Below are positions 10,539 through 62,972 of a DNA stretch of 64,000 bases, piece after piece. Every line of letters starts with the position of its first letter. Position 1 is the stretch's first letter. Source of the DNA: Planctomycetota bacterium (GTDB lineage Bacteria > Planctomycetota > UBA1135 > UBA2386); the NCBI GenBank assembly GCA_965228735.1, contig OZ245838.1, forward strand, positions 2,432,001-2,496,000. The letters are read 5' to 3'. The position numbers and the translations under genes were made by a program. The notes beneath the pieces were generated by a model. That model was not told the DNA's origin. It saw only the letters and a program-made list of their open reading frames with translations, and made no database searches.

Positions 10539-12038
10539 TCAGAACGAACCGACCGTGATGGCGAGCGCGTTGGACCCGCTCAGCGACGATAGCCCGCCGA
10601 GCGGACCGAGGTCGAGCTGCAAGAACTGGTGCACGAGCTGCTGCCCGGCGAGCGCGGGGTCGCGCGGGATCGCGAACCCGTGCCCGGCCGAGCCGTTGAC
10701 CGGCGCGACGAGCGCAACGGCGTCGGTGGTGGCCAGCAGATCACAGCCCGCGATCCCGCTCGGGTGCAGGGCCGACAACGGCGTCGCCTGCTGACCGAAC
10801 CCGACGACGAGCACTGCGAGCGCCGAGCCGGCGAATCCGCTCGCCTGCGAACGAAACTCCCCGCCGGCCCACGCCTGCCGCGTCACTGCCAGCGTGACCG
10901 GCCCGGCCGGCCCGACGCAACCGGTCGGGATCGTCGTCGCCGACGCCGGGCAGTTGGTCGTGATCAGCGCGACGCCGCGCGACGGCTGGCCGCCGACGAA
11001 GCTGAACTCGCCGGCCAGCGCGACCTCACCGTTCTCCGTCACCGTCGCCTCCCAGACCCGCGCGTTGACGCCCGTGCCGATCGCCCCCCACGCCGCGCCG
11101 TCGAAGCGCGCCACGCCGACGATCGAGACGCCACTGATCGAACTGAAGCTGCCGGCCGCGATGAGGTCACCGTTCGGCAGTTCGTCGAGCGAGCGGACGT
11201 CGGCGTTGAACGAACCCGGGTAGCCCGACCAGCTGCTGCCGTCCCAGCGCGCCACACCGCTCACCGCGACACCCCCGGCCGAGGAGAAGACCCCGCAAGC
11301 CACGATGTCGCCGGCCGCGGTCTCGATCACGTCGTAGCCCGTGCCGTTGAACCCGCCGCCGACGCCGCTCCACGCCGCGCCGTCCCAGCGCGCGATGTGC
11401 GCAGCGGGCACGCCGCCGACGTTCTGGAACTCGCCGACCGCATAGATGTCGCCGTTCTGCGCGGTCCGCATCGCGGTCACCCAGTCGTCGAACATGCCGC
11501 CGAGCTGATTCCAGGCAGTGCCGTCCCAGTGCATCACCGTGCACGTGCGAACGCCGCCCCCGCTCACGTTGCCGTCGACGACGAGGTCACCGTTCGGCAG
11601 CGTCGCCATCGCGCTGAAGTTGGGCATGTGACCAGGAACGGGCTCGGCCCCCGAACCGATCGGCGACCAGGACGTACCGTCCCAACGTGCGAAGTGGGTC
11701 GCGGTCGCGCCGCCCGCCGTCGTGAACAAGCCACCCGCCATGACGTCGCCGCCCGGCATGAGCAGCAGCGTGCCGACCGTGTTGTTCATGCCCGACCCGA
11801 GCGCGTTCCAGGAGCTGCCGTCCCACCGCGCGATGTAGCTGGCCGGCACGCCACCGGCGGCCGTGAACGCGCCACCGACGACGTGATCGCCGCCTGGCAG
11901 CGCGAGCGCGGAATAGCCGCGCATGCCGAAGAACAGCCCCCCGCCGGTCAGCCCGCCGAGCCCCTGGGTCGTGGTGGTGCATTGCGCACTGACGTGGGCG
12001 GCGAGGAGAACGAACGAAACGGCAGCGGTGCGAAGCAT
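10539..12038 (-). CDS. Secreted beta-propeller repeat protein (ARWDGxxW repeats) with the shared C-terminal module
   Basis: Signal peptide MLRTAAVSFVLLAAHVSAQ; repeats LPNGDLxxxGxF...ARWDGxxW; ends IPRDPALAG..HQ..SNALAITVGSF. Confidence 0.8.
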   Translation of the reverse strand: MLRTAAVSFVLLAAHVSAQCTTTTQGLGGLTGGGLFFGMRGYSALALPGGDHVVGGAFTAAGGVPASYIARWDGSSWNALGSGMNNTVGTLLLMPGGDVMAGGLFTTAGGATATHFARWDGTSWSPIGSGAEPVPGHMPNFSAMATLPNGDLVVDGNVSGGGVRTCTVMHWDGTAWNQLGGMFDDWVTAMRTAQNGDIYAVGEFQNVGGVPAAHIARWDGAAWSGVGGGFNGTGYDVIETAAGDIVACGVFSSAGGVAVSGVARWDGSSWSGYPGSFNADVRSLDELPNGDLIAAGSFSSISGVSIVGVARFDGAAWGAIGTGVNARVWEATVTENGEVALAGEFSFVGGQPSRGVALITTNCPASATTIPTGCVGPAGPVTLAVTRQAWAGGEFRSQASGFAGSALAVLVVGFGQQATPLSALHPSGIAGCDLLATTDAVALVAPVNGSAGHGFAIPRDPALAGQQLVHQFLQLDLGPLGGLSSLSGSNALAITVGSF

Positions 12039-12462
12039 TGATCGGCCTTGGGTCGTCGGGTCACGGACCAAAGGGCGGGTGCAAGCACCCGCTGGCGATC
12101 ACACGGTTTGTTCGGTTTCCGGCCGAGAACCGCCCGTTGTTGTTACGCCACCCACACGATCGGCCGAGATCGGAACGACTCTCCCCCCCTTTCAGGCCCC
12201 GAATCCCGGTTGGCACGGGAGTTGTTCTGTGTGGGTTGCCGGTCCGAGACCACCAAGTATTCCCAGGGATGGAATGCGTGAGAGAGGCGACCAAAGGTCT
12301 CGGGCCGGCACGTTTTTTCGGCGCGTGCCGGTGCTCTCCACCGAGCCCGCCATCAGCGCCGTGCGACCCCGACTGCCGACTGTCAGGCGGGGACTGTCGC
12401 CCGAAGCAGAGGTGGCTCCGTTCTGCCGAACCATGGTGGGTCCGATCAGGTGCCCGCGAACA

Positions 12463-12939
12463 TCATTCTTCCCCGCAGGAACTGGGAGATGACGCAGCAC
12501 CGCCAGTTGCGAGCGCGCGGCGCTTGCGCGTCGTGTACCAGACCGCGCCGACCGCGGCGAACGCCGAGAGCAGCGGAATCGCGAGGATGCCGAGTTCCTC
12601 GTAGCGAAACGGTGCGGGCAGCGCACCCGCACTCACGACCAAGAACGCAAGCCAGGTTGTCCGGTCGCGGGCACGCCCTCGCAGAAACGGTGCGACAGCG
12701 ATCAGCAGTAGCGCTGCGTGGAAGATCACGAACCCAGGTGGACTCTTGTCCCACGCGTACTGAAGCGACCATTCGAACCGAAACGCCCAGACCAGAAACA
12801 CGTGCGGCACGATCAAGAGTACGGTGAGCACCCCGAGTACGGGCCAGCGACGCCCGGCGATGCGCAGAGCGGTGTCCTTTGCGAGGACGATGTAGCCAGC
12901 GATCGCAAGGCCGAACGTGATTGCGTTGTGGTCGAGCAC
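12463..12939 (-). CDS. Hypothetical integral membrane protein
   Basis: About five hydrophobic segments in 158 aa. Confidence 0.6.
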   Translation of the reverse strand: MLDHNAITFGLAIAGYIVLAKDTALRIAGRRWPVLGVLTVLLIVPHVFLVWAFRFEWSLQYAWDKSPPGFVIFHAALLLIAVAPFLRGRARDRTTWLAFLVVSAGALPAPFRYEELGILAIPLLSAFAAVGAVWYTTRKRRALATGGAASSPSSCGEE

Positions 12940-13028
12940 GTGTCTTCAAGAGAGCCGTCGAAGGGTGCCAGGTCTGCACGGCATGACCGCAGCCACGCGG
13001 CCCCGAAACGACGGGTCGAAACGCGCAC

Positions 13029-13253
13029 TCAAGCGCGCCGTTGGTAGTCGGTGCAGTTTCTGATGTGGACCTCGTTCTTGAACGTCTCCGTCGATCCCCA
13101 CACGCAGAGGGAGCCGTCCGAGAAGAGCTTCTTGCAGTGATTGCACGTCGCGCACCGGGTGTCGGAACCGTCAGCGCTCGTCGTGCACCGGAACAGCAAC
13201 CAGAGCACGAGTCCTACCAGCGCCAGGCCAGCGATCTGCAGCAGGATGACCAT
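13029..13253 (-). CDS. Small membrane-anchored Cys-rich protein
   Basis: N-terminal TM helix, then CATCNHC...C...C; 74 aa. Confidence 0.6.
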   Translation of the reverse strand: MVILLQIAGLALVGLVLWLLFRCTTSADGSDTRCATCNHCKKLFSDGSLCVWGSTETFKNEVHIRNCTDYQRRA

Positions 13254-13303
13254 GTGGCCCCCATCGTAACAGAGCACTGCTGGCAGTCGGGCGATCGGCC
13301 GTC

Positions 13304-17859: not shown

Positions 17860-20544
17860 ATGCCGACCCGCTCGCTGCCGCCGTTCTGCCTGCTGTTGCT
17901 CGCCACTGCCTGTTCGCTGTCGCAGAGCGGGCGCGACCAGCCCCTGACGTTTCCCAACGAAGCGGCGAAGTGGCGCTACGAGCGCTACCTCGACGAGCAC
18001 GGCGCGATTCCGGCGCAGGCGTGGGAGCGGGCGGGCCGCGCGCGGGATCGAACTGTCACCGCGACCGCGATGTTGGATGACGGTCCGGGCATCAGCCCGC
18101 AAGCGTGGACGCAGCGCGGCCCGGACAACGTCGCCGGCCGCACGCGGTCGATCGCGATCGACCCGAGCAACCCGCAACGGATCTGGGTCGGCGCGGTCAG
18201 CGGCGGGCTCTGGAAGAGCGAGGACGGCGGTTCGACCTGGGCGCTCATCGACGACTGGTGGAGCAACCTGTCGGTCGGGTGCATCGCGCTGCATCCGAAC
18301 GACCCGGACCACATCCGGATCGGCACCGGCGAAGGGTTCTGGTCGCTCGCGCATCTGCAGCGCAGCTTCTCGCACTTCGTGCGCGGGGCTGGGATGTTCG
18401 AGAGCACGGATGGCGGGGCGACGTGGACGCAGGTGCCTGGCACCGCGACCTGGCAGCACATCACGCGTATCGCCATCTCCGAGGCCAACCCCAACGTGAT
18501 CCTCGCGTCGCGGCGACCCGGCGGCATCGCGCGGTCGACCGACGGCGGGCAGACCTGGACCGACGTCGCGACCGGTCTGGTCGCGAGTCCTTTCTCGTAT
18601 CAGGTGCTGTTCGATCCCAATGACGCCAGCAAGGCCGTGGCCCACCTCGCGCCCGCGTCGGTGGCGAGCCATCACGTGATCCGTTCGACGGACGGCGGCC
18701 TGACCTGGCAGTTCGCGAGCTCGGGCCTCGGCAGCGTGAGCGGCGAGTTCTCGCGCATCGAGCTCGCCTATGCGGCATCCGACCCTGGCATGGTCTACGC
18801 GTCGGTCGGCTCGAGCGGCAAGGTGTGGCGTTCGACCGATGACGGGCACACCTGGGTGCAGCGGACGGGCAGCACCAACACGGGAACGTCGTACTACTAC
18901 AACGCGCTGTGGGTCGATCCGACCGACAGCAGTCGGCTGCTCGTCGGCAGCACCCGCGTCCGCCGCTCCACCAACGGTGGACAGTCGTTCTCGACGATCG
19001 CCAACGGCTACATCATGACAACGGAACCGCACCCGGACGTGCACGCGTTCGTGCCGGCGCCGGGCTTCGACGGCTCGTCCAACCGGCGCGTCTACGTCGC
19101 GACCGACGGCGGCGTGCACGTCGCGGCCGACTACCTGACGGCGTCGACGAGCGGCGGCTGGACCGATCTCGACCGGACGATGCGCTCGACGCAGTTCTAT
19201 GCGGCGGCCGGCCATCACAGCGGTGACAAGATCATCGGCGGCACGCAGGACAACGGCACGCTGCGGGTCGCCGGTGCCAGCCCGACGGCCAACCTCGTGT
19301 TCGGCGGCGACGGCGGCCACGTGCAGATCGACCCGACCGACCCCAACTACAGCTACGGCGAGTACCAGTATCTCGGCGTGCATCGCTCGACCAACGGCGG
19401 CAACTCGGCGTCGACGATCACCGCCGGACTCGGCGATGTCGGCTCCGGCCGTTCGAACTTCATCGCGCCGCTCGAGCTCGACCCCAACGACCCTGATCGG
19501 CTGTATGCCGGCGGCCGCAGCCTCTGGCGCACGTCGAATGCACGCACGGGCGCCAACTGGTCCGCGATCAAGAGCAACGTCGGCAGCCTGATCGCGGCGA
19601 TCGCGATCACGCCCGGCGTGCCCGACCGCATCTTCGTCGGCCACAACGACGGCCGGCTCTACCGGACGACCAACGGCACGGCAGGTTCACCGACGTGGAC
19701 CGCGATCGATGACAACGCGGGCAACGACCCGTTGCCCGATCGCGTCATCACGCGGCTCGTCGTCGATCCCTCGAACCCGAACGTCGTCTACGCCTGCTTC
19801 GGTGGGTTCGCGACCGACAACGTCTGGCGTTCGAGCGACGCGGGACTGACGTGGACGGCGCGACCCGGCGCGAGTCCGTTCGCGCTGCCGGCTGCGCCGG
19901 TCTACGGACTCGCCGTGCACCCCGACGACGGCGATGTCCTGTATGCCGCGACCGAGGTCGGGCTGTTCGCGTCCGGCGATGGCGGCATGAACTGGTCGAC
20001 GACCAACGAAGGGCCGGCGAACGTCGTCTGCGAGGAGGTCACGTTCGCCCACGGCACGGGGCCGCGCCGGCTCGTGCTCGCGACGCTGGGCCGCGGGTTG
20101 TGGACCGCGGACGTGGTGCTGCCAACGGTCGCGACGTTCGGCACGGCTTGCGCGGGACACGGTTCGCCGCCCGTGCTCGGCGTCGACCCGCTGCATCCGG
20201 CGCGCGTCGGCCGCACGTTGACGTTGACGGCCACCGGTTTGCTGGCCGGTCAACCAGGAGCGTGGGTCGCGCTCGGCTTGTCCGACACCGCGTGGTCCGG
20301 CGGCGCCCTGCCCTACCCACTCGACGGCTTCGGCATGACCGGTTGCACGCTGCAGACCAGCGTCGAGGCCACCCTCATGGCGCCGGTCTCGGGCGCCGGC
20401 GAAGCGCAGTGGAGCCTGCCGATGCCGGCCGCGCCGAACCTGCTCGGGCTGCCGCTCTTCGCGCAGGCCTTCGGGGCCGAGCCGGGCGCCAACCCGGCCG
20501 GCTTCGTCACCTCGCGACCGCTGGCGATGACGTTGGGCTGGTAG
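17860..20544 (+). CDS. Putative lipoprotein with BNR/Asp-box (VPS10/GH74-like) repeats and the shared C-terminal module
   Basis: LATAC lipobox; GPDNVAGRTR; repeated SxDGGxTW; GGTQDNG; ATLGRGLW; C-terminal module. Confidence 0.82.
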   Translation: MPTRSLPPFCLLLLATACSLSQSGRDQPLTFPNEAAKWRYERYLDEHGAIPAQAWERAGRARDRTVTATAMLDDGPGISPQAWTQRGPDNVAGRTRSIAIDPSNPQRIWVGAVSGGLWKSEDGGSTWALIDDWWSNLSVGCIALHPNDPDHIRIGTGEGFWSLAHLQRSFSHFVRGAGMFESTDGGATWTQVPGTATWQHITRIAISEANPNVILASRRPGGIARSTDGGQTWTDVATGLVASPFSYQVLFDPNDASKAVAHLAPASVASHHVIRSTDGGLTWQFASSGLGSVSGEFSRIELAYAASDPGMVYASVGSSGKVWRSTDDGHTWVQRTGSTNTGTSYYYNALWVDPTDSSRLLVGSTRVRRSTNGGQSFSTIANGYIMTTEPHPDVHAFVPAPGFDGSSNRRVYVATDGGVHVAADYLTASTSGGWTDLDRTMRSTQFYAAAGHHSGDKIIGGTQDNGTLRVAGASPTANLVFGGDGGHVQIDPTDPNYSYGEYQYLGVHRSTNGGNSASTITAGLGDVGSGRSNFIAPLELDPNDPDRLYAGGRSLWRTSNARTGANWSAIKSNVGSLIAAIAITPGVPDRIFVGHNDGRLYRTTNGTAGSPTWTAIDDNAGNDPLPDRVITRLVVDPSNPNVVYACFGGFATDNVWRSSDAGLTWTARPGASPFALPAAPVYGLAVHPDDGDVLYAATEVGLFASGDGGMNWSTTNEGPANVVCEEVTFAHGTGPRRLVLATLGRGLWTADVVLPTVATFGTACAGHGSPPVLGVDPLHPARVGRTLTLTATGLLAGQPGAWVALGLSDTAWSGGALPYPLDGFGMTGCTLQTSVEATLMAPVSGAGEAQWSLPMPAAPNLLGLPLFAQAFGAEPGANPAGFVTSRPLAMTLGW

Positions 20545-32970: not shown

Positions 32971-32974
<4 letters not shown>
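32441..32974 (+). CDS. ECF sigma factor, planctomycete kinase-associated type
   Basis: HTLEPSALLHEVYVRL, MRQVLVDHA..KRGG, DWLFARAWI; ATGA overlap with the kinase. Confidence 0.9.
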
Positions 32975-35115
<2,141 letters not shown>

Positions 35116-35241: not shown

Positions 35242-36366
35242 ATGATCCACCGCCTCCTCTCCCGTTGCCCGGCCCTGTTCACTCTCGCCCTCGTCCCGGC
35301 CCTCGCGTCGCAGACCCCGGTTGCGCTCGGGGACGCGGCCCGCGTGGCCAACATCACGAGCCCGGCCCAGAGCGACACCTACTTCTTCTCCGGCACGCAA
35401 GGGGACACGCTGCGCGTCGTGTTCAGCAGCCAGAACTCGGGCTACCCGAGCTACTCGTACTACCATCAGCTCGAACTGCGGCAGGGCACGACCGTGATCG
35501 GCAACGTGATCGCCGGTCTCGGCACCGAGACGGTGACGCTGCCCAACACCGGCTACTACACGCTGCACGTTCGCGCGCAGAACAACCAATCGACCGGTTG
35601 GTACGGCTTCAAGCTCGACCGGGTGAACGACCCGGTCGGCGCCGATCGCATGGCGCTCGACTGGAACCTCGAGGGTTCGCTGACGAGCGCGGCGGACTTC
35701 GCGGTGTACCAGATCCGGGCGGTCGCGGGCAGCCAGGCGCAGCTGACGTTCACGAGCGAGAACAGCGGCTACCCGAGCTACAACTACTACCACTACGCCG
35801 AGCTGCTCGGCGACGACGGCACGCAGATCGCGGCGGTGCAGGGCAACGGCGCGGCTCCGATCACGTTCACCGAGACCGGGGTCTACACGCTGTTCGTCGC
35901 CGCACAGAACTGGCAGAGCACCGGGTGGTACGCGGCCGCGCTCGAGTGTCAGTCGTGGCCGGTGACGGCGTGTGACGACGCAGCGCACAGCAGCAACTTC
36001 GGCGCGGGCCTGGCCGGGACCAACGGCGTGCCGAGCCTGACCACCGCAGCACCGCCGCAACTCGGCGCCATGCTCGATGTCAACGTCGGCAGCTCCGCGA
36101 CGCAGCCGACCACGGCGCTGCTGCTCATCGGCCTGAGCTCCGCGAACGATCCGCTGGCCGGCTACGGCGGCACGGTCCTGGTCGCCAACCCGACGCTGCA
36201 CGTGCTCTCCGGCGTGGCGCCGTCCGGCAGCACCCTGCAGTTCCCGATCCCCAACGACGCGCTGCTGCTCGGCCTCGGTTTCGCGGCGCAGAGTCTCGTC
36301 GTCGACGCGGGCGCGGTGAACGGGTTCGCGTTCTCGCCGGGACTGCTCGTTCTGTTGGGGAACTGA
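35242..36366 (+). CDS. Secreted protein with two tandem PPC-like beta domains and the shared C-terminal module
   Basis: Signal peptide; internal duplication NSGYPSYxYYH / TGxYTLxVxAQNxQSTGWY; ends IPNDALLLG..AQ..SPGLLVLLGN. Confidence 0.75.
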   Translation: MIHRLLSRCPALFTLALVPALASQTPVALGDAARVANITSPAQSDTYFFSGTQGDTLRVVFSSQNSGYPSYSYYHQLELRQGTTVIGNVIAGLGTETVTLPNTGYYTLHVRAQNNQSTGWYGFKLDRVNDPVGADRMALDWNLEGSLTSAADFAVYQIRAVAGSQAQLTFTSENSGYPSYNYYHYAELLGDDGTQIAAVQGNGAAPITFTETGVYTLFVAAQNWQSTGWYAAALECQSWPVTACDDAAHSSNFGAGLAGTNGVPSLTTAAPPQLGAMLDVNVGSSATQPTTALLLIGLSSANDPLAGYGGTVLVANPTLHVLSGVAPSGSTLQFPIPNDALLLGLGFAAQSLVVDAGAVNGFAFSPGLLVLLGN

Positions 36367-42560: not shown

Positions 42561-42677
42561 CGGGTTTCCGCCGTCCCGGCACCCGCGCGACGCACGCGAC
42601 TCCGACCCCGCCGTACAACCCGCGCCGCATCCGTTGCCGAGCTACGATGCGGATCGCTTGTTGCAGGAGTGATCGCC

Positions 42678-48202: not shown

Positions 48203-50818
48203 TCAGTTGCCGATCCTGAGCTGCAGGCCGTTGGTCGCCGTCCGCCCGAAGCCGTTGGCCGCGAGGTCGCCGGGGAAGAGCTGCAGGTAGGTGCTCATGC
48301 CGAGCAGCGCCGTGTTCGCCGCGATCGGCAGCTGGCCCGTGTAGACGCCGTTCGAGTCGGCGAAGCCGTCGCGGACGAGATCGGGGCGGACGCGCAGGAA
48401 GCAGCCCGGCGCCTGGAACAACCCGAGGTCGGCCGGCAGCGCGTTGCCGAACCACGACGTGTTCGACTGGCCCTGCACGAGCCACACCGGCCGATCCGGG
48501 ACCAGGTTCGTGCCCGTGATCGTCACCGTGCTGCCGAGGCGCGGCGGCGTCGCCATCAGCGCGGGCGTGCCGTTGCTGCCCGCACACCCGGTGCCGAAGC
48601 TGAACACGCCCGGTTCGTGGATCGCCGTCGTCCACATCCCGCGGCCGTGGGTGCCGACGAGCAGCTTCATCGAGCCGTGCAGGAACGTGATGTCGTAGCA
48701 CGCGACGTCCGCCGGGCCGTCGTTCGACGACGACCAGGTCGCGCCGGCGTCCGAACTGCCGAACACGCCGACCTCGGTCGCGACGTAGACGAAGTCGAGC
48801 AGCAGCGGGTGCTGCGCGATGCCATAGACCGGCGCATCGGGCAGCTGTTCGGCGCCGGCACCCGTTCGGATCGACCAGCTCTGACCGTTGTTGTCGCTGT
48901 AGCGCAGGTTGCCGGCCGTGTAGCCGCCGAACGCGACCCAGGCCTTCGTCGGGTCCGCGCGATCGAGCAGGATGCGAGTGACCTGCTTGTTCGGCAGCAC
49001 GTTCAGCGAACCGTTGTTCTCGACGGTGACCCAGTTCGGCGATGGCGTGGTCGCGTTCGTCGTGCGGTAGATGCGACCGTCGTTGTAGCCGACCCACACC
49101 GTATCGACGTCGTTCGGCGCGACCGCGATCGCGCTGATGTTCGAGCCGATCGGCCCGCGAATCGAGGCCCAGATCGGCAGGATCGACTGTGGGTTGGCGC
49201 ATCGCCAGAGCGAACAGCCCCCCGCGTAGAGGTAGCTCGGGTCGTCCGTGGAGAGCACGAGCGGCGCGATGAAGTTGGTGCACCCGTTGAGGAAGTCGGT
49301 CAGCCCGGCCGTGATCTGGGTCACCGACTGCCCACCGTCGAGCGTGCGATGGAGGCGCATGTTCTGGGCCTCGCCGTAGATCACGTCGGGGTCGTTCGGG
49401 TCGATCTGCGACACGCCGCCGTCGTTGCCGAAGTAGATGTCCGCGCTGTTGCCGGTGGCGCTGTCGATCAGGTGGCTGCCGTTGTCCTGCGTGCCGCCGA
49501 CGATGCGCCCCGACGGGCCGTGACCCGACACGCCGTAGTACTGGACCGTGCGAAAGCCGGCATCGCGCCGTTGCCACCCCGAGCCGATCGTGACGTTGCG
49601 GATGTCGGTCGTCTGCCAGACGCCGCCGTCGGTGCACACGTAGAACGTGCGGTTGCTGACCCCGTCGTAGCCCGGATGCTCGACGAAGCGATGCACGTCG
49701 GAGTGCGGGTGCGCCGTGTTGATGCCCCCGCTGCCGATCTCCGTGAACGTCTGCCCGCCGTTCGAGCTGCGCCACAGCCGCACGTTGCCGACCACGACCC
49801 AGTTGGAGTTGGTCGGATCGACCCAGATCGCGTTGCAGTACCACGGGAACGAGTCGCCGTTGATCGGCGCCGTCGTGCGCTGCACCCAGCTCTGCCCCCC
49901 GTCGTCGCTGCGCCAGCACTGGAAACCCGCGATCACCGCGTACAACCGGCCGGACACGGACGGGGCGTAGGCGATCTCGATGCGCGTGCCCGGCGAGAAC
50001 CCGCCGGTCGCGTTCTGCCAGGTCAGGCCGGCATCGTCCGACCACGCGATGCCGTGCGGTGATGCGCCGCTCCCGCCGCCGCCCCAGTGCGCGACGCACC
50101 GGCTCGCGTCATTGGGATCGATCAGCACCTGCAGGCTCGAGCCCGGCCGCACGGTCGTCCAGCTCGCGCCGCCGTTCGCCGTGCGGCGGATGCCGCCGGC
50201 CGTGGATACGAGCATCACGTTCGGGTTCGCGTGCGAGACCGCGATGCGGTTGACGTTGCCGAACGCGATCGTCGTCGGCATCTGCGCCCACGTGTTGCCG
50301 GCGTTGGTCGACTTGAAGATCCCCGCGCCGAAGATCGCGTCGCCGTTGCCGTAACCCTCACCCGTCCCGGCGTAGATCACGTCGGGATTGCCGGGTTCGA
50401 ACGCGAGACAGGAGATCGCGAGGTTGCCCATGAAGTCGTCGAGCGGGAACCAGGTCTGCCCCGAGTTGTTCGACCGCCAGACGCCACCGCCGACCGAGCC
50501 GGCGTAGAGTCGCGAGGTCTGGGTCGGATGCACGAGCAACGTGCGGGACCGTCCGCCGATGTTGTCGGGCCCGTGCTCCGTCCACCCGAGGTTGCCGATG
50601 CCGCCACCGTCGGTCATTGCCGCGAAGTCGACGTTCACCTGGCGCTGCGCCAGCGCGTTCCGGCGGCCGTTCGGGTCGATGTTGCCGCGCTCGTCGCGCA
50701 TGCGCGCCAGACGGTACTCGAGCGCCTGCTCGGCCCCGCTCGGGCCGGGCTCGGCGGGCTGCGGCAGAGACTCGCAGCCGCAAAGCGCGAGCAGAGAGAT
50801 CCATACGATTCGATTCAT
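48203..50818 (-). CDS. Putative lipoprotein with BNR/Asp-box repeats and the shared C-terminal module
   Basis: MNRIVWISLLALCGC lipobox; GPDNIGGRSR, GGTQDNG, GTHGRGMW; paralog of 17860-20544. Confidence 0.82.
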   Translation of the reverse strand: MNRIVWISLLALCGCESLPQPAEPGPSGAEQALEYRLARMRDERGNIDPNGRRNALAQRQVNVDFAAMTDGGGIGNLGWTEHGPDNIGGRSRTLLVHPTQTSRLYAGSVGGGVWRSNNSGQTWFPLDDFMGNLAISCLAFEPGNPDVIYAGTGEGYGNGDAIFGAGIFKSTNAGNTWAQMPTTIAFGNVNRIAVSHANPNVMLVSTAGGIRRTANGGASWTTVRPGSSLQVLIDPNDASRCVAHWGGGGSGASPHGIAWSDDAGLTWQNATGGFSPGTRIEIAYAPSVSGRLYAVIAGFQCWRSDDGGQSWVQRTTAPINGDSFPWYCNAIWVDPTNSNWVVVGNVRLWRSSNGGQTFTEIGSGGINTAHPHSDVHRFVEHPGYDGVSNRTFYVCTDGGVWQTTDIRNVTIGSGWQRRDAGFRTVQYYGVSGHGPSGRIVGGTQDNGSHLIDSATGNSADIYFGNDGGVSQIDPNDPDVIYGEAQNMRLHRTLDGGQSVTQITAGLTDFLNGCTNFIAPLVLSTDDPSYLYAGGCSLWRCANPQSILPIWASIRGPIGSNISAIAVAPNDVDTVWVGYNDGRIYRTTNATTPSPNWVTVENNGSLNVLPNKQVTRILLDRADPTKAWVAFGGYTAGNLRYSDNNGQSWSIRTGAGAEQLPDAPVYGIAQHPLLLDFVYVATEVGVFGSSDAGATWSSSNDGPADVACYDITFLHGSMKLLVGTHGRGMWTTAIHEPGVFSFGTGCAGSNGTPALMATPPRLGSTVTITGTNLVPDRPVWLVQGQSNTSWFGNALPADLGLFQAPGCFLRVRPDLVRDGFADSNGVYTGQLPIAANTALLGMSTYLQLFPGDLAANGFGRTATNGLQLRIGN

Positions 50819-50823
50819 GACGA

Positions 50824-53082
50824 TCAGAAGTCGAGGTCGAGACCCAGCCGGCGGGTGAACGAGATGTCGGGCGCGAGCGCGCACGGCGAGACCCCGGGTG
50901 TCAGCACGGCCCACTGCACCTCGAACACCGCGCCGACGAACGGCGCGACGCTGCACGGCAGACTCCACGGGTAGCGCGCCGTGCCATTGATCGCAGGCAC
51001 GAAGACGCTCGCCACCGGATTCACGACCGAGCAGGCCGCGCAGCTCTGCGGCGGCCCCGGGAACGCGAACATGAGGATCGGCACCGCGCCGGCTGGCGCC
51101 CCCGCGAGCTCGATCCCAAACCGCGTGTTGCCGACCGCGTAGGGTCCGCCGCTCGGCGCGATCGCACCCGGCGTGCCGCACGGCGAACCACCGTAGGTGA
51201 AGGCGCCACCACCGAGCGCCTCGTAGCGCTGCGCGATGATGCTGCCTTCGAACGGCGGCGCGTCGTCAGCTTCGTGGAACACGATCAGCGCGCGGTCGCT
51301 GGCCGTCGCGCCGCCGCCGAACTCGCTCGCGATCGCCGGCGCGGACTCCACGTTGCGCAGCACGGTCGAGTTGACGCCGGTCAGCACGATCGGCTGACCG
51401 CACGGCGAACAGTCGAACGCGAGCTCGTGGCCGCGTACGTCGTAGTTGCTGGCACCCGGAAACACCTGATGACCGTGCAGCACGACGAACTTGTCGCGGC
51501 AGAACCCGACCGCAGGGTCGCGCGAGTCGAGCCCGGCGACGTTCTGCAGCGCGGTCTCGGCCGAGCTGTTGGCCAGCGTCATCGTGGCCGCGGTCCAACG
51601 CAGCGCCCGACACCAGACATCGCGTTCCCCGGCTGGCGCGGCGACCTCGCCCCGTTCGTAGGCGACGACGAACTGCGTGCCGTCACCGTCGACCGCGCAG
51701 CTCCCGAGGGATCCGCTGCCGAGCGGCGCGTTCACGACCACGACCCCGCTGCCGGCCAGGGAGCCGGCGGTGCTGCAGACGCGCGCTGCCAGCTGCGTCG
51801 CGCCGATCACCCCCTGGCGATAGCAGACCAGGTGATAGCGGTCCGACCCCGTGCGCGAGATCGCCGGCGCGCTCGCCAACGCGCTCGCCGTCACGACCGC
51901 AGTGTTGCCGACCTGCGGCGCGGCGCCGGGGGACGCGAGCGCGACGCGGGCCAGCCGGATGCCCTGACCGACGAGGTGGTAGACGACGAGCGCCGACGAC
52001 CCGGTAGCCGAGCGGTTGCCCGCGACTCCCGGATCGAGCGCCTCGCCGAACAGGTTTGGGATCAGGCTGACCGGGCTCGACACCGCGCCGTTCGACGCAT
52101 CGACCGAGCAACAGAAGATCGCCCACGGACTGAACGGCGAGGCCGCCTGCTGCCACGCGACGACGAACGAGTCGCGGTTGGCGATGTTGGCGATCGACGG
52201 CCCTTTGACCTGGACGGTGCCGCTCGTCACGACGACGAAGCCGCCGACCAGCGCGCCGCTGCCGTCGATGCGCTGGCCCCGCAGCGCCATCGACACCGCC
52301 GAGAACACGCGGCGATACACCACGAGGTAGACGTCGTTGGTCGCGTCGTAGGCGACGTCCGGCTCGCTGTCGTTCCATGAGTTGGAGCTCGCGAGCAGCT
52401 GGGTGCCGATCAGCGGATCGAGGACGAGCGGGTAGCTCGCCTCGTCGACGAACGCGGCCGGCAGCCGCATCTCGAGCACACCCTCGTCGAAACGGAGCTC
52501 GCCCGCGACGCGGCGACCGCTGGCATCGATGCCGGTGACGCCGCCGATCGTGACCCCGCCGACACCGTCGAGGCTCGCCACGAGCCCGTTCGGCCCGAGC
52601 TCCACGTTCGGCAGCGAGGTCGTCAGCCGATAGCGCACCACGAGGTCGCCGCCGCCGGGCACGGGTGCCTCGAACCGCCAGCTCAGCGCGACACCCTCCG
52701 GCGTCGCGGCGAAGCGCTCGACGGCGCTATCGCCGCGATCACATTCGATCGTCGTGCCCGTCACGCGCGGCGTCGCCGGCGCAGCGCGGCGCGTGACCGA
52801 ACGACCGAAGTCGAGGATGTCGAGGCGCAGTTGCTCGGTGCGATCGGCCGCAGCACCGAGCGCCGGCACGAACGTCAGGCCGGTCGCGTCGACGGTCGCG
52901 CGGTAGTCCCAGCCTGCAGCCTGGACACCCGCACCATCGGTCGCGGGCGCCACCGTCACGGCTTCGCGCAACGCCATGACCGGGGTTGCGTTCGCATCCG
53001 GCAGCGTCTGCGCGACGACGGTCGACGCGAGGCTCGACAGGCAGGCTGCGGCGACCAGAGTGCTCGTTCGAAGGCGGTTCAT
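50824..53082 (-). CDS. Large secreted protein (conserved N-domain ending YPLVLDP, beta-repeat middle, divergent C-terminal module)
   Basis: Signal peptide; ATGA overlap with the upstream paralog; PDVAYD..NDVYLVVY. Confidence 0.75.
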   Translation of the reverse strand: MNRLRTSTLVAAACLSSLASTVVAQTLPDANATPVMALREAVTVAPATDGAGVQAAGWDYRATVDATGLTFVPALGAAADRTEQLRLDILDFGRSVTRRAAPATPRVTGTTIECDRGDSAVERFAATPEGVALSWRFEAPVPGGGDLVVRYRLTTSLPNVELGPNGLVASLDGVGGVTIGGVTGIDASGRRVAGELRFDEGVLEMRLPAAFVDEASYPLVLDPLIGTQLLASSNSWNDSEPDVAYDATNDVYLVVYRRVFSAVSMALRGQRIDGSGALVGGFVVVTSGTVQVKGPSIANIANRDSFVVAWQQAASPFSPWAIFCCSVDASNGAVSSPVSLIPNLFGEALDPGVAGNRSATGSSALVVYHLVGQGIRLARVALASPGAAPQVGNTAVVTASALASAPAISRTGSDRYHLVCYRQGVIGATQLAARVCSTAGSLAGSGVVVVNAPLGSGSLGSCAVDGDGTQFVVAYERGEVAAPAGERDVWCRALRWTAATMTLANSSAETALQNVAGLDSRDPAVGFCRDKFVVLHGHQVFPGASNYDVRGHELAFDCSPCGQPIVLTGVNSTVLRNVESAPAIASEFGGGATASDRALIVFHEADDAPPFEGSIIAQRYEALGGGAFTYGGSPCGTPGAIAPSGGPYAVGNTRFGIELAGAPAGAVPILMFAFPGPPQSCAACSVVNPVASVFVPAINGTARYPWSLPCSVAPFVGAVFEVQWAVLTPGVSPCALAPDISFTRRLGLDLDF

Positions 53083-55364
53083 TGGATCGTGAGGCGAACG
53101 GCGTTCGTCAGGTCGGAGCCGAAGAGGAAGCAGCCCGGCGACAGCGGGTCGTGCACGAGCCACTGCAGGTACAAAGTCGCGCCGACGACGATCGAGCTGT
53201 TGGGGATCGCGGCCGCGAACGACGCCCGACCGGCGCCATCGGTCTGCGTCGCGACGACGAAGCCGAGGTACGGATCCGGTACGAGGCTGCAAGTGCCGCA
53301 CGGCTGCAGGCGGACATCACGACTGGCGACCAGCCACGCGAGCGCGAACGTGCGTTCGGTCACGGCCTGCGCCCGGAACCTCGCGTTGCCGCGGATCGCG
53401 CAGCTCGCGTACGCCTGCCCCGGCTCGTCACCGCAACCGCCGCCGACGTCGACCGTCAGCCCGTCGACCGCTTCCCACCGCTGCGCCAGCACGTCGCCGG
53501 TGCTGCTGCCACCCGAGTCGTACGACTCGAACACGAGCAGCGAGTGATCGCCCGCCCCGCCACCGGCGAGGTCGGAGCAGCCGGCCAGCTGGTAGTCCCA
53601 GGCGAAGCTGCCGTCGAGCCACGACTGCGTCGCCGACTCGCAGGCCGTGCACGTCAACGGATCGAGCGACCGGCAGTAGGTGTTGAACACGTTGCTGCCG
53701 TCCTGATCGGTCCAGCCGACGAGCACCGAGCCGCGCTGCATCACGACGGTCGGCGACGCCTCCGCATCGTCGGCATCGTCCGCGACCGGCTCGATCGGCG
53801 ACAGCACGGCGCTCTCGCTGAGGGCGCCCTCCTGCGGGTCCCACGCGATCGCGCGACAGACGATGTCGTCCTTGCTCGGCACCCCCGCTTCCTGCGTCTG
53901 CCAGGCCACCACCCAGGTGCGGCCGTCGCCGTCGACGGCCGGCCGCAGCTGGTCGTCGTTCGCGGTCGTCGCGAGGCCGAACTCCTCGAGCATCCCCAGA
54001 TTGCGATCGACGATCGTGAACGCCGGGTCGTGATCGCTGACCGAGTTCTGCACCTCGTAGACGATCATGTGGTGGCCGGTCCGACCGCCGCCGTTGCTGA
54101 TGCGCGGGCGATTCGGCGGCACCGCGGCGGAACTGTAGATCGTCGTCGGGTCGAACCGAACGAGCGTGCCGTTCGCCGCGTACTGGATCTGCGCCGCTCG
54201 AATGCTCGAGGAGCTCGTTTCGGCCCAGACGCAGATCGCGTCGTCGTCGGCCGTCGTCGCCTCACCGCCCAGGTCGGGCACGCGCTGGGTCGCGCTGCCC
54301 GTCGCGACCCCGATCTCGGCCGACACCGCGCCATTGCCGGCGGCGACGCCACGCGCGTAGATGTCACCGCTGCGTTCGTAGGCGACGACGAAGCCGGCGC
54401 GCAAACGAACGTTCGCGACCGCCGGATCGAACTCTCCCGTCGTGCTCAACTCGATGATGATCCGACTGCCGACGAGGCTGCCATCGCGTGCGATGCGCTG
54501 CCCATGGATGTCATGATCGACGGCCGAGTACGCGCGCTGGAACACCGCGAGGTAGAGGTCGTTGGTCAGGTCGAACGCGACGTCGGGGTCGCGGTCGTCG
54601 AGGTTGTTGCCGACGGCCTGGAACACCGACCCGATCAGCGGATCGAGCGTCAGCGGCAGCGCCGCATCGTCGACGAACGCGGCGGGCAGCCGCAGCTCGA
54701 GGATGCCGTCGTCGAACCGCAGTGAACCGGCGGCGTGGCGACCGTGCGCATCGACTCCCGTCACTCCGCCGATCGACATGCCGCCGACGCCGGGCAATGC
54801 GAGCCGCAGGCCGGCGCCGTCGGGGGTGACGGAAAACTCCGTGTCCAGGTCGCAGCGCACGACGAGATCGCCCGTGCCGCGGGGCAGGCGATCGAAGACG
54901 AAGCTCTGCTCGATACCGGCCGGCACGACGTCGTAGCGCTCGACGGCGGCCGCGCGGCGATACTCGACGGCCCCAGCGACGACGTGTCGCTCGGCCGGGC
55001 CGAACGGCGCGATGTCGGCACCGCGCCCACACCCGAGCGCGCGGATCGCGACGTCCATGTTGCGCGGCGCGGCCGCGCCGAGCGCCGGCACGAACACCGG
55101 GCCCGTCGAATCGAATCGCACCTTGTAGGCCGAGTCACCGGACGACCCGACGGCCCACAGCACCCCACCCCGTTCGAGCAATGAGGCGACGGGCGCGGCG
55201 TTGCCGATCGCGGTCGCCAAGCCAGCACGCTGCTGGACTGCCGGCTCGGCACCGGTCGGACTCGGCTCGGCGCCAGCCTGGGCCAGCGCGGCTGGCAACA
55301 GCCACACATGGAGCATGGCGCATCGAAAGGCTCGATCAGTTATCGAGCGTCTGAGGGGGTTCAT
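53079..55364 (-). CDS. Large secreted protein, tandem paralog of 50824-53082
   Basis: YKVRFD..GPVFVPALG, ERYDV..GIEQSFVFD, LPAAFVDDAALPLTLDPLIG; ends YLQW...TNAVRLTIQ. Start 55364 or 55317. Confidence 0.75.
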   Translation of the reverse strand: MNPLRRSITDRAFRCAMLHVWLLPAALAQAGAEPSPTGAEPAVQQRAGLATAIGNAAPVASLLERGGVLWAVGSSGDSAYKVRFDSTGPVFVPALGAAAPRNMDVAIRALGCGRGADIAPFGPAERHVVAGAVEYRRAAAVERYDVVPAGIEQSFVFDRLPRGTGDLVVRCDLDTEFSVTPDGAGLRLALPGVGGMSIGGVTGVDAHGRHAAGSLRFDDGILELRLPAAFVDDAALPLTLDPLIGSVFQAVGNNLDDRDPDVAFDLTNDLYLAVFQRAYSAVDHDIHGQRIARDGSLVGSRIIIELSTTGEFDPAVANVRLRAGFVVAYERSGDIYARGVAAGNGAVSAEIGVATGSATQRVPDLGGEATTADDDAICVWAETSSSSIRAAQIQYAANGTLVRFDPTTIYSSAAVPPNRPRISNGGGRTGHHMIVYEVQNSVSDHDPAFTIVDRNLGMLEEFGLATTANDDQLRPAVDGDGRTWVVAWQTQEAGVPSKDDIVCRAIAWDPQEGALSESAVLSPIEPVADDADDAEASPTVVMQRGSVLVGWTDQDGSNVFNTYCRSLDPLTCTACESATQSWLDGSFAWDYQLAGCSDLAGGGAGDHSLLVFESYDSGGSSTGDVLAQRWEAVDGLTVDVGGGCGDEPGQAYASCAIRGNARFRAQAVTERTFALAWLVASRDVRLQPCGTCSLVPDPYLGFVVATQTDGAGRASFAAAIPNSSIVVGATLYLQWLVHDPLSPGCFLFGSDLTNAVRLTIQ

Positions 55365-57900: not shown

Positions 57901-58383
57901 ATGAAGACGCCACTGCTGGCCGCGGCCATCGCGATCGCGGCCCCGCTCTGCGCCCAGTCGCAGGCCTCTCTGAGTTCGATCAGCCCGCCGTGCCCGAGCG
58001 GCACCGGCGCTCCGAACCTGACCACGACGCTGCTGCCGCGGATCGGATCGACGTTCGGCGTCACGTTCCACAATCAGACCTGTCCGTTCGGTCAGGGCTG
58101 CTTCCTCGGGATCCCGCTCGTGTTCGTCGGCTTTCAGCAGACGAGCACCGGGCTCAGCGTGCCCGGCGTCAGCCTCGTCGGCAGCTGCACGATCGGCGTG
58201 AGTCAGGACATCCTGTTCCGCTACTCCTTCACCGGCCCCGAGTGGAGCACGATGCCGATCCCCAACCAGCCTTCGCTGATCGGCGTGCAGTTCTTCGTGC
58301 AGGGCGCGCGTGTCGACTCCTACCCGACAGGCAATGCCATCGTGCTGCTGACGAACGTGCTCGCCGGAACCGTCGGGACCTGA
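57901..58383 (+). CDS. Secreted protein consisting only of the shared C-terminal module
   Basis: GAGGAG RBS; MKTPLLAAAIAIAAPLCAQ, then directly PC...P.L...PRIG...SCTI...IPNQPSLIGVQFFVQ...TNVLAGTVGT. Confidence 0.8.
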   Translation: MKTPLLAAAIAIAAPLCAQSQASLSSISPPCPSGTGAPNLTTTLLPRIGSTFGVTFHNQTCPFGQGCFLGIPLVFVGFQQTSTGLSVPGVSLVGSCTIGVSQDILFRYSFTGPEWSTMPIPNQPSLIGVQFFVQGARVDSYPTGNAIVLLTNVLAGTVGT

Positions 58384-59976: not shown

Positions 59977-60096
59977 TCACTGGATCCGGATGGCGATCGC
60001 GTTCGACCCCGAGAGGCCGAGCGGCGTGCAGCCGGCCGGCTCGAGCAACAGCCACTGCGCGAACAGCGCGAGGTACCGGAACGACGGACTGTCGAT
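59977..60096 (-). pseudogene. Orphan 3' tail of the shared C-terminal module
   Basis: IDSPSFRYLALFAQWLLLEPAGCTPLGLSGSNAIAIRIQ*, with no plausible start or gene body upstream. Confidence 0.6.
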
Positions 60097-60186
60097 GTGC
60101 CGGAGATCGTCCTCGCGACACGCGGCCCGCCACAGGGCCGGCGTCGGCGTTAGACTCTGACCTCCACTCGTTCCTGAGGAGAAGTC

Positions 60187-62223
60187 ATGTTCCGAACCGG
60201 CGCCGGTCTGTTGTTCGCCTTCACCGCGCTCTCGTTGTGCCAGTCCGCCGCCGTCGCGCAGGCCGGCTGGGCCGAACGCGGCGCGCGCCCCCGCAGCTTC
60301 GCCGCGCTCTATCCCACGGCGGGCCGAGACGGCACGGCGCTGCTCGTGCGCCGCGGCATCGTGCGGCAGTGGGACGGCGCGCGCTGGGCGCGGGTCGCGT
60401 CGATCGCGCCCGCCGGCACCGGTGCGATCTCGAGCATGGTCTGGGACCACGACCGCGAACGCACGGTCGGCCTGAGCCTCGACCTCACCGTGTTCCCGTA
60501 TCAGGTCCGCACGTTCGAGCTCAGGGACGGCGTCTTCCAGATCTTCGCCGCCGTCCCCGGCAACCTGCCGATCGAGATGCACTACGACCCCGCGCTCGGT
60601 GGTGCCGTCGTCTTCTGCGAGACCGCGACCGGGACACAGGACTACCTCTGGGACGGCACGAGCTGGAACCCGCTGCCGGCCGACGTGCGGCCGGTGCACG
60701 TGCGGGGCGCGATCGTGGCGGACCGCCAGCGGCAACGACTGGTCGCGTTCACGCCCAACGCGCCGGGCCCCGGCGGTGAGACGTATGAATGGGACGGCAC
60801 GAGTTGGACCCAGCGGCAACCGTCGACGTCACCTTCACCGCGCGACGACACGACGATGCTCTTCGATCCCGCGACCGGCCTGACGATGCTCTATGGCGGC
60901 AGTGCGGGCGGAACGACGCTGCGCGACACGTGGTTCTGGAACGGCACGGACTGGTCGCAGAGCCCCACCAATTCGCCGCCGACCTCACGCGCGGTCGATC
61001 TCCTGCTCGATCGCACGCAGGGTATTCGCCTCGTCGACGCGGCCGCGATGAGAACGCGCGACTACCGGTGGAACGGCAGCGCGTGGGTTCCGGGCGCCGA
61101 GTCGCTGCCGATGGTCGAACACTCGCTGATCGGTAACGACCGCGCGCGCGGCGTGCTGACGATGCTCATGGGCGGGAACACGTACGACTGGGACGGGTTC
61201 GACTGGCACCTCATCACGACCAGCGGTCCGGGCCCACGCAGTTACACGACGCTGGCGTTCGATCCGAGCCGCAACGAGATGGTCACGTTCGGTGGCGTCG
61301 CCGGGTCGGTCTACCAGCTCGACACGTGGACGTTCGACGGCGCGCAGTGGACCCAGCAAACGACGAACAACGCGCCGAGCCGACGGCATTCGCATGCGAT
61401 GTTCACGAGCACCGCGCTGAACGGGGTCGTCCTGTTCGGCGGCGATAGCGGTCCGCTCTCGTTCGACGACACGTGGCTCTGGCAGAACGGCGCCTGGACC
61501 GAGCTGTTCCTGCAGGTGCGGCCGCCGGCTGGCGCGAGTGTGGGCACGGCCGGTCGGCCGGGTCAGACGCCCGTCGTCGCGGCGGGCGGTGAGCTGTGGT
61601 CGTTCGACGGCAGCTGGACGCTGATCGACGGCAACATCCCCTACCCGGCGATCGACCAGATCGGGCTGACCCGCGCCGGCGATCCCGTCGTCGCGACGCG
61701 CACCAACCTGTGCTACGAGTATCAGAACGGCATCTGGCTGGCCCGTGACGGCCCGGATACGGAGATCTCGGACCTCGGCTACGACCCGGTACGCGGCGAC
61801 ATCCTCGCGGTCGGCTTCGGCCACGAGGTCGTGTACTCGACCGAGCTCGCGACGAGCGCGACCGTCGGCCAGGCGTGCACGAACGATCGCTTCACGCTGT
61901 CGACGGCCGGCGACCCGTTCCTCGGCAACGGCGCGTTCCGCGTCCACGCGGACGGCGCGCAGGGCTTCGCGGTGTTCGCGTTCGGGTTCGCTTCGAATCC
62001 GAGCCCGCTCGGCAGCAGCTGCATCTCGTACCTGAGCAACCCGGTCTCGGCCGGCTTCGTCGGCACGAATGCCTACGACGTCGCGGCCCTGCCCGTGCCG
62101 ATCCCGATGCTCGGGGCGCTGCGCGGGCTGCGGCTCTACCTGCAGGCAGCCGGCCCGCAACCGAATGGTCCATTCGGCGGACTGGCGGTCTCGGCCGGGC
62201 TCGAGCTCGTGATCGGCGGCTGA
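60187..62223 (+). CDS. Secreted Kelch-like repeat protein with the shared C-terminal module
   Basis: GAGGAG RBS, signal peptide; shares QDYLW.GT.W..L.ADVRP.HV with 46042-48096. Confidence 0.82.
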   Translation: MFRTGAGLLFAFTALSLCQSAAVAQAGWAERGARPRSFAALYPTAGRDGTALLVRRGIVRQWDGARWARVASIAPAGTGAISSMVWDHDRERTVGLSLDLTVFPYQVRTFELRDGVFQIFAAVPGNLPIEMHYDPALGGAVVFCETATGTQDYLWDGTSWNPLPADVRPVHVRGAIVADRQRQRLVAFTPNAPGPGGETYEWDGTSWTQRQPSTSPSPRDDTTMLFDPATGLTMLYGGSAGGTTLRDTWFWNGTDWSQSPTNSPPTSRAVDLLLDRTQGIRLVDAAAMRTRDYRWNGSAWVPGAESLPMVEHSLIGNDRARGVLTMLMGGNTYDWDGFDWHLITTSGPGPRSYTTLAFDPSRNEMVTFGGVAGSVYQLDTWTFDGAQWTQQTTNNAPSRRHSHAMFTSTALNGVVLFGGDSGPLSFDDTWLWQNGAWTELFLQVRPPAGASVGTAGRPGQTPVVAAGGELWSFDGSWTLIDGNIPYPAIDQIGLTRAGDPVVATRTNLCYEYQNGIWLARDGPDTEISDLGYDPVRGDILAVGFGHEVVYSTELATSATVGQACTNDRFTLSTAGDPFLGNGAFRVHADGAQGFAVFAFGFASNPSPLGSSCISYLSNPVSAGFVGTNAYDVAALPVPIPMLGALRGLRLYLQAAGPQPNGPFGGLAVSAGLELVIGG

Positions 62224-62264
62224 TACGGACGGGGCAGGGTACAGCGGCAGGTTAGACTGCCGCG

Positions 62265-62744
62265 ATGCCGTCGCCTGCCCCCTCGGTCACCCTGCGCGCC
62301 GTCGTCGAAGCCGACCTGCAGGCACTGTTCGAGTTCCAACGCCAACCCGCAGCGAACGCGATGGCGGCGTTCCCGCCCCGGGGTCGCGATGCGTTCATGG
62401 CGCACTGGCGCGAGAACGTGCTCGGCAAGGACGACGTGACCAAGCGCACCGTGCTCTGCGACGACCGCATCGCCGGCAGTATCGTGAGCTACGCCGATGC
62501 GGACTCCGGGCGACAGCTCGTCGGCTACTGGATCGGCGAAGAGTTCTGGGGCCGCGGCGTCGCGACCAGAGCACTCACGTTGCTCGTCGAAGAGCTACCG
62601 GGGCGCCCGCTGCACGCGTTCGTCGCCACAACGAATGTCGGTTCCATTCGCGTGCTCGAGAAGTGCGCGTTCGAGCGCATCGGCAAGCAGCGCGGCAACC
62701 ACGGGGACGATACGGTCGAAGTGTTCGTCTACGAACTGCGCTGA
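62265..62744 (+). CDS. GNAT N-acetyltransferase (RimJ/RimL-like)
   Basis: VGYWIG..FWGRGVAT, NVGSIRVLEKCAF. Confidence 0.9.
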   Translation: MPSPAPSVTLRAVVEADLQALFEFQRQPAANAMAAFPPRGRDAFMAHWRENVLGKDDVTKRTVLCDDRIAGSIVSYADADSGRQLVGYWIGEEFWGRGVATRALTLLVEELPGRPLHAFVATTNVGSIRVLEKCAFERIGKQRGNHGDDTVEVFVYELR

Positions 62745-62762
62745 AGTGGGGCACGCACCGTC

Positions 62763-62972
62763 CTACGGCAGCACGCCGATCGCAACCGTCCCCGACAACC
62801 GCGGATCCCCGTCACCGAAGAACACGGCCTGCGCGAACAACGGCAGGCCGGCGAGCGCGGGGTCGTTCGGGATCGGGACGGTGTCGATCGTGATGCCGGG
62901 CGGCAGCAGCAGGAACTTCGCGACCGCGGTCGAAAGGTCGATCCCGACCGTGCCGAGATCGCCGTAGGGCAC
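62763..62972 (-). pseudogene. Orphan 3' half of the shared C-terminal module
   Basis: ...VPIPNDPALAGLPLFAQAVFFGDGDPRLSGTVAIGVLP*; no signal peptide, and the upstream sequence is unrelated. Confidence 0.6.

Follow-up and report, generated by a model that had tools for sequence, protein, structure and literature searches.

What does it mean that the products of 11 genes, with dissimilar bodies and encoded within one short region of a planctomycete contig, end in the same tail? The stretch analyzed here, referred to as the window, comprises 64,000 nucleotides (nt) of the source genome (G000; 7.19 Mb, one contig, 69% GC, 93% complete), a member of the Planctomycetota. Window genes are named by their left coordinates, and module positions are numbered along the whole stretch. 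An earlier interpretation made from the letters alone, hereafter the sequence-only reading, had described a terminal pattern of about 120 to 140 amino acids (aa) shared by the 11 genes and had likened it to known signals and docking domains. We find that this pattern is a module attached to hundreds of otherwise unrelated proteins (carriers, whose remaining parts are termed passengers), and that relatives of some carriers bear, in its place, a lipid anchor or a tail of the dockerin-like kind. We judge the chances to be about even that the module is an uncleaved, position-independent surface-docking domain on cargo of the general secretory (Sec) pathway.

A shared tail at all 11 window genes

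Homologous tails of 125 to 141 aa can be aligned at the ends of 11/11 window genes, with 19-34% identity to the first row of the alignment. A hidden Markov model (HMM) trained on 80 tails that lie outside the window recovered all 11 window tails, with E values from 5e-32 to 4e-7 in a search of 84,342 open reading frames (ORFs), and reversed-sequence controls for the module profiles gave no match, which upholds the shared pattern first described. The two orphan tails reported at 59977 and 62763 also score with the profile (Table 1). Once start sites were corrected, a signal peptide was seen at all 11 genes, in agreement with the export signals of two kinds noted before: genes 17860 and 48203 have a lipobox, and the rest have signals of the signal peptidase I (SPI) type. 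In gene 39527 the signal peptide, which begins at the ATG at 41702, is out of frame with the body, and a frameshift lies near a T run at about 41635. The statement that exported enzymes lack the module stood within the window, where the profile matched 0/5 of the S10, S41, SGNH-like, peroxidase and 21726 proteins. It did not stand genome-wide, since seven carriers of G000 contain CXXCH heme motifs and one an S8-type motif. Pfam, NCBIfam and PDB sequence searches with the tails found no match, consistent with the view that the module could not be named, and no description of the domain was found in the literature searched, which excluded subscription journals and supplements. One further gene, at window positions 41987-42672 (+), encodes a signal peptide and a carrier-like passenger with a stop after 130 aa; it is probably a frameshifted or truncated module carrier.

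Number and layout of carriers in the source genome

The first profile matched 258 of the 84,342 stop-to-stop ORFs of G000, 236 of them ending no more than 5 residues from the stop, and none of the reversed ORFs. The union of eight profiles raised the count to 320 carriers among 5,376 called genes (reversed control, 0), which together account for 8.5% of the coding residues of the genome. The module is C-terminal in 294 carriers, is followed by an extension of 11-60 residues in 12, and is N-terminal or internal in 14, so that the label 'extreme C-terminal' applies to 294 of the 320 and fails for 26. Non-terminal copies also occur in other genomes (P0125; loci L111, L134 and L251). Two modules in one protein were seen in 0/320 carriers, and 19 different amino acids occur as the last residue of the tails. 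Some of the short carriers, a few in number, are fragments; several of the 19 consist of a signal and a module only, like 57901. Mean pairwise identity among the modules of G000 is 26%.

A permissive signal-peptide heuristic, the outcome of which depends on start calls, was positive for 220/246 carriers and 1,715/4,407 other proteins, and a lipobox is present in nine carriers, including two window genes. Clustering of the 274 passengers long enough for comparison yielded 98 families, 74 being singletons. Among 54 scanned homologues were M28 and M12B peptidases, sorbosone dehydrogenase-type, RCC1, PKD and FG-GAP proteins, and many Kelch proteins. Recent transfers of modules from one passenger to an unrelated one are rare, with at least six pairings among 270 reaching 42% identity.

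Interchange of the module with dockerin-like tails and lipid anchors

The 17860 passenger was compared with its 120 best homologues. Of these, 98 terminate in the module and 20 carry a dockerin-like tail, both kinds of tail sitting behind the same junction motif; the other two are partial. Three of 11 scanned dockerin-like tails match NF041540, below its cut-off. None of the 120 has a type IX secretion system (T9SS) tail, and an EF-hand-like loop pattern was found in 0/100 non-dockerin rows.

The same exchange is seen at the level of a lineage. The module is present in 120 of the 121 sampled genomes of the order, the sole exception being G027, in which three profiles found no divergent module. 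This genome has 31 Dockerin_1 matches at E<=1e-4 (39 at E<=1e-3), while every other genome of the order has at most two, and PF00404 has no match in G000. The dockerins lie 14-21 aa from the stop in 29 of the 30 proteins fetched, after an immunoglobulin (Ig)-like domain of about 95 residues. We considered whether this domain is a diverged module and rejected the idea, as the two are unrelated by hhalign (probability <1%). Ten G027 dockerin passengers have a G000 homologue in the fetched stretch, and the best match is a carrier in eight (five by HMM, three by eye). Contamination as the origin of the G027 dockerins is ruled out by composition, their loci resembling the clade-typical genes of that genome in GC and tetranucleotide profile (r 0.95). 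At loci L333-L362 of G027, a tail of about 175 aa, made up of the Ig-like domain, a dockerin-like calcium-loop pair and a conserved extension, ends some 30 exported proteins.

Lipid anchors alternate with the module as well. In G000 gene 1245429, the module precedes a region whose counterpart in lipoprotein 2655148 (E 4.5e-194) stands behind a lipobox and stalk, and gene 4698122 encodes a signal, the module and a domain of lipoprotein 2699600 (E 4.6e-9). As judged by these alignments, the module occupies in both proteins the place of their relatives' lipid anchor. The proposed analogy with a signal or docking domain thus fared unevenly: at the sequence level its dockerin-like half has direct comparative support from the tail swaps, and its other half, a cleaved signal of the T9SS kind, is weakened by the N-terminal and internal copies, by the lack of a fixed last residue, and by the lack of a co-occurring machine among the candidates tested.

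Predicted fold and hydrophobicity

The module of gene 17860-20544 was used for structure modeling. AlphaFold2 returned an identical all-beta model from two alignments, with confidence (pLDDT) of 97.4 and 97.2, and the module is accordingly predicted to be a disulfide-stapled Ig-like beta-sandwich of about 135 residues. Two conserved cysteines are both present in 184 of 313 modules, both absent from 89 and represented by one in 40, these being related sequences and not independent observations; that they are kept or lost together indicates a disulfide. Structurally, the model comes nearest to generic domains of the Ig and fibronectin types (best Z 8.7, root-mean-square deviation [rmsd] 2.3, 85 residues aligned), in which about 40 residues of the model, an arm and an insert, are unmatched. 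Foldseek gave no row at E<=0.001. The top rows, GM2 activator and NPC2, superpose too poorly (TM 0.31-0.37, rmsd 11-12) for a lipid pocket to be claimed.

The module is distinctly hydrophobic. Its mean hydropathy (GRAVY) is +0.39 with 8.5% charged residues, compared with -0.11 and about 15% (14.8-15.5%) for passengers and -0.29 and about 23.5-23.6% for other exported proteins of G000, and 184/270 modules lie above the 95th percentile for passenger windows in hydrophobicity. No transmembrane-like stretch follows the signal in 245/252 carriers.

High hydrophobicity would suit a tile of a self-assembling surface layer (S-layer), on whose module-module lattice the passengers would be displayed. 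The signal-plus-module-only proteins (57901 and several others among the short carriers) and the large share of coding residues taken up by carriers fit this proposal too, and the Deinococcus HPI S-layer appears as a weak Foldseek match (E 4.9e-3). However, the mean identity of modules within one genome is low for a co-assembling lattice, and an unrelated dockerin tail takes the place of the module in G027. We therefore consider an S-layer tile improbable.

The charge data bear on a different proposal, in which the module docks passengers within the periplasm, on peptidoglycan, the inner leaflet or a periplasmic scaffold, and nothing exits the cell. We infer, rather than observe, that carriers cross the outer membrane. 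Heme proteins are usually periplasmic, and seven carriers have heme motifs. Periplasmic enlargements in related deep-branching planctomycetes, described in 10.1101/817700, are also in line with this proposal. On the other hand, propellers and domains of low charge predominate among the passengers, in contrast to the other exported proteins of G000, and the typical periplasmic enzymes of the window are without the module. Periplasmic retention accordingly has little to recommend it in our estimation.

Comparison with known terminal systems

The type A C-terminal domain (CTD) of the T9SS is a terminal Ig-like sandwich on diverse cargo with a Sec signal, according to PMC11285876. The module resembles it as a terminal domain, predicted to be Ig-like, on diverse Sec cargo, a signal being found on most carriers by the heuristic above. 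It differs from the CTD families TIGR04183 and PF18962 (CTD model, 72 positions) in its roughly twofold length, its disulfide-stapled insert, its ability to be N-terminal or internal, and its unconserved last residue. None of the 11 tails matches TIGR04183 or PF18962 at E<=1 (NCBIfam, Pfam), and a search of G000 with CTD models gave 0 matches, though its positive control was also silent. Held against the compact 3+4 Ig-like sandwich of CTDs, the module is all-beta by prediction and scores Z 8.7 with generic Ig domains, with no stand-out match. The best 50 rows of the structural neighbor lists are without a T9SS CTD, which does not by itself exclude kinship.

Components of the T9SS were searched for in G000 and in a panel of 48 genomes, composed of 23 carriers of the module, G027, and 24 others with no or one module. 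PorV had 0 matches in G000 (93% complete), with a positive control in Bacteroides; SprA also had 0, its controls likewise giving none. The PorU-type C25 sortase does not track the module, being missing from 5/23 carrier genomes and present in 15/24 others. With PorV not found and the PorU-like peptidase not co-occurring, we rejected T9SS membership. The generic Ig-like fold would be expected of a diverged T9SS CTD or of a structural Ig spacer with no targeting role, and both are very improbable: the former is opposed by the silence of the T9SS models on the tails and by the PorV and C25 results, and the latter would predict tandem and internal copies, while two copies were never found in one protein.

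PMC5837995 describes a Q-rule in Bacteroidetes, glutamine following the signal cleavage site, and Planctomycetes go unmentioned in its main text. In G000, by a permissive heuristic, glutamine follows most predicted SPI cleavage sites, in 252/320 carriers and about 700 other proteins. In this, many module cargo proteins resemble those that follow the Bacteroidetes rule.

Closer parallels come from docking and anchoring devices. Like the module, the dockerin (PF00404, NF041540) is found singly at the ends of many exported proteins that are otherwise unrelated, and the two are interchangeable. The dockerin is, however, a helical calcium-loop unit of about 60-70 aa, whereas the module is, by prediction, an all-beta sandwich of 135 aa with no EF-hand-like loop. 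A lipoprotein anchor with a Big_5 (PF13205) stalk holds the place equivalent to the module in two G000 proteins, yet it is a covalent lipid on an N-terminal cysteine, in contrast to a folded domain without a lipobox. PEP-CTERM, MYXO-CTERM and LPXTG signals consist of a short motif, a transmembrane helix and a basic tail. They share with the module a C-terminal position on many exported proteins, but the module is all-beta in the model and nearly all carriers (245/252) have no transmembrane-like window. In its likely function the module is akin to a dockerin tail and, more loosely, to the T9SS CTD, and by the features tested it is in neither family.

Search for dedicated machinery

Candidate machinery was sought by comparing G000 with genome G202, from another class, of whose 2.4 Mb the comparison covered 1.93 Mb and gave 866 reciprocal best hits; 68 of the 116 exported candidates shared by the two were scanned in Pfam. 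The envelope clusters conserved between them comprise a pseudopilin operon that encodes a GspK-like protein, five core secretin systems, and genes for the large Big_5 lipoproteins. The pseudopilin (type II) cluster is present in 23/23 carrier genomes tested. Its 1,735-aa GspK-like protein was found in all 23, in G027 and in 12/24 others (36/48), and an unnamed 495-aa neighbor of GspK, with paired CxxC motifs at its end, in all 23, in G027 and in 8/24 others (32/48). The secretin-ATPase-platform genes of G000 lie at 2,199-2,205 kb, and an orthologue of the secretin was found in 4/4 other genomes searched.

A general type II route is thus available in every carrier genome tested, and nothing tested is specific to the module. 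The giant GspK and its 495-aa neighbor were set aside as module-specific factors on account of their occurrence in G027 and in 12 and 8 of the 24 others, respectively. The five core secretin systems, including a two-secretin/tetratricopeptide repeat (TPR)/ExbBD cluster, were discarded as all are retained in G027, and so were three large lipoprotein families. The C25 peptidase was excluded on its distribution, being found in 18/23 carriers (not in G013, a carrier assembled as a single contig) and 15/24 others, and not in G027. Outside the module-bearing clade, the Big_5 lipoprotein family tested is almost absent (22/23 carriers, G027, 2/24 others); it is retained in G027 and is hence not a module-specific partner. 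A barrel heuristic pointed to no evident channel that is both large and novel. None of the candidates tested disappeared along with the module, though the whole gene set of G027 was not covered and a lost receptor may have been missed. The sequence-only reading had seen no dedicated machinery gene in the window; none was found there, and among the candidates tested elsewhere none is specific to the module.

Two of these clusters deserve separate mention. At G000:C1:6769699-6784599 (L222; L116 in G202), genes for two secretin-domain lipoproteins, TPR proteins, ExbB/MotA and two ExbD proteins are syntenic across classes, and this is possibly a proton-driven secretin system. Between pilD and pyrB, at G000:C1:2689303-2703361 (L221), are genes for four large proteins, most with a lipobox and two with Big_5 matches; a lipoprotein is encoded at the equivalent place in G202.

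These data bear most directly on the possibility that the module is an outer-membrane translocation signal, read in the folded state by the type II system (for example, by the giant GspK-like tip) or by another translocon, with or without later release. Its chief supports are the 92% C-terminal placement and the nine carriers that are also lipoproteins. The single copy per protein, the seven folded heme proteins bearing the module, the giant-GspK cluster in all 23 carriers and a predicted Ig-like fold like that of the T9SS CTD are also in line with it. By contrast, G027 has swapped in an unrelated tail and has lost none of the five core secretin systems, nor the GspK cluster, N-terminal and inserted copies of the module exist, and no tested candidate vanished along with it. 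We hold a translocation signal to be possible, though unlikely.

Proposed role

An uncleaved docking domain is favored by the position independence of the module, its single copy, its hydrophobicity, and its exchange with dockerin-like tails and lipid anchors. Carriers, whose signal peptides are visible in the sequence, would first be exported by Sec and would then fold in the periplasm, where the paired cysteines of the predicted sandwich would form their disulfide. They would next pass the outer membrane, the probable route being the general type II system common to the tested carriers, and dock non-covalently on an outer-membrane lipid, a glycolipid or an unrecognized partner protein. The module may thus serve as a tether, through its hydrophobic face, on the outside of the cell envelope, doing the same job as the dockerin-like tail or lipid anchor of its relatives. 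By this analogy, carriers are likely held on the cell surface.

Several observations weigh against such a docking domain. No ligand or partner emerged, and the surface location is drawn only from the type of cargo and its low charge. A pure anchor would be redundant in the nine carriers with a lipobox, two of them in the window, and the predominance of C-terminal placement is equally predicted by a translocation signal. The type II cluster is also present in 8-12 of the 24 genomes with no or one module; its tie to the module is only one of compatibility, and kinship alone would produce such co-occurrence. The lineage swap is known from a single genome, whose assembly is fragmented (240 contigs) and in which 2/10 dockerin passengers matched non-carriers in G000 and no Pfam cohesin (PF00963) partner for the dockerin-like tail was found. 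Cohesin PF00963 has no match in G000 either.

A bolder proposal, which we put forward as speculative, unites export and anchoring. The hydrophobic Ig-like domain could be both the export address for the giant-GspK type II system and an uncleaved membrane anchor, underlying the surface proteome of a whole branch of the Planctomycetota, with a tag that an unrelated, dockerin-like tail can replace entirely. If so, the machine would read a property rather than a fold, and the display system would cover up to about 6% of genes.

Whatever its exact role, the module is a very large family with no database model, and thousands of 'hypothetical' proteins could consequently be grouped in annotation as a single targeted class. 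As a marker, it points to the likely surface proteome of a planctomycete branch that is widespread and largely uncultured, and its one-for-one exchange with dockerin-like tails bears on the role of the many cohesin-less dockerins of these bacteria. An uncleaved, position-independent anchor would also be usable as a display tag.

Taxonomic range

In a representative library, the module matched 29,435 clusters at 50% identity, and the match was C-terminal in 149 of the best 150. Source names and the ESM Atlas place the matches in Planctomycetota, the Atlas clusters all being unnamed. The branch may be OM190 / Saltatorellota, a conjecture that draws in part on 10.1101/817700, where the cultured OM190 isolates Saltatorellus and Engelhardtia are named. 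With the first, less sensitive profile, the module was found in 65/301 sampled genomes of the phylum, and genomes of other classes contain from 23 to at least 138 copies each. A cross-class profile applied to 30 genomes for re-testing left 22 without the module and found one copy in three. Nine G202 proteins had no profile match and a carrier as best G000 match; by eye, eight have diverged modules and one is a lipoprotein. On these sequence comparisons, the module is kept across classes. Plasmid sequences gave no match.

Features and neighboring genes

Table 1. Module copies and remnants in the window, and the conserved pseudopilin operon
Feature	Position	Strand	E value
Module of gene 10539-12038 (499 aa, SPI signal, DUF5122/Rax2-type propeller)	10542..10949	-	8.9e-26
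Module of gene 17860-20544 (894 aa, lipobox, Asp-box/Vps10 propeller)	20122..20541	+	7.4e-32
Module of gene 35242-36366 (374 aa, passenger without Pfam match)	35977..36363	+	4.7e-20
Module of Kelch-type gene 39527-41702	39530..39904	-	3.1e-17
Module of gene 42678-45200 (DUF5122/Rax2-type propellers)	44787..45197	+	2.8e-26
Module of Kelch-type gene 46042-48096	46045..46422	-	2e-19
Module of gene 48203-50818 (871 aa, lipobox, Asp-box/Vps10 propeller)	48206..48619	-	5.3e-32
Divergent module of gene 50824-53082 (passenger without Pfam match)	50827..51213	-	4.4e-7
Divergent module of gene 53079-55364 (passenger without Pfam match)	53082..53468	-	1.5e-8
Module of gene 57901-58383 (160 aa; signal peptide and module, nothing else)	57958..58380	+	1.1e-14
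Module of Kelch-type gene 60187-62223	61843..62220	+	1e-17
Orphan remnant, last ~40 codons of the module, no upstream gene body	59977..60096	-	2.5e-4
Orphan remnant, last ~69 codons of the module, no upstream gene body	62763..62972	-	4.2e-7
Pseudopilin operon with GspK-like and 495-aa proteins	G000:C1:1395000-1415000 (L220); G202 counterpart L126		

Genes for Ser/Thr kinases adjoin module genes of G000 above chance (21/61, with 6.2 expected), and two in the window, at 32441-35115 and 58417-59874, stand beside module genes. Families of extracytoplasmic function (ECF) sigma factors are likewise enriched among the neighbors. These neighbors suggest regulated expression of module cargo. The window gene at 36405-39452 (-) encodes an ECF sigma factor joined to a membrane segment and carboxypeptidase-regulatory-like repeats, and belongs to a large family in G000.

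Elsewhere in the genome, G000:C1:3575119-3592811 holds what we take to be a type VI secretion-like cluster, with baseplate, ClpV-, VgrG- and PAAR-like genes and genes for pentapeptide-repeat proteins. The window also contains a group II intron at 3151-5163 (-), with an Rfam RF02005 match at 4945-5163 and a reverse transcriptase ORF at 3324-4898. It adjoins a dispersed repeat of about 100 bp present in dozens of copies. Eight more near-complete copies of the intron at 98-100% identity and one split copy are found in G000, and from these sequences the intron looks recently active.

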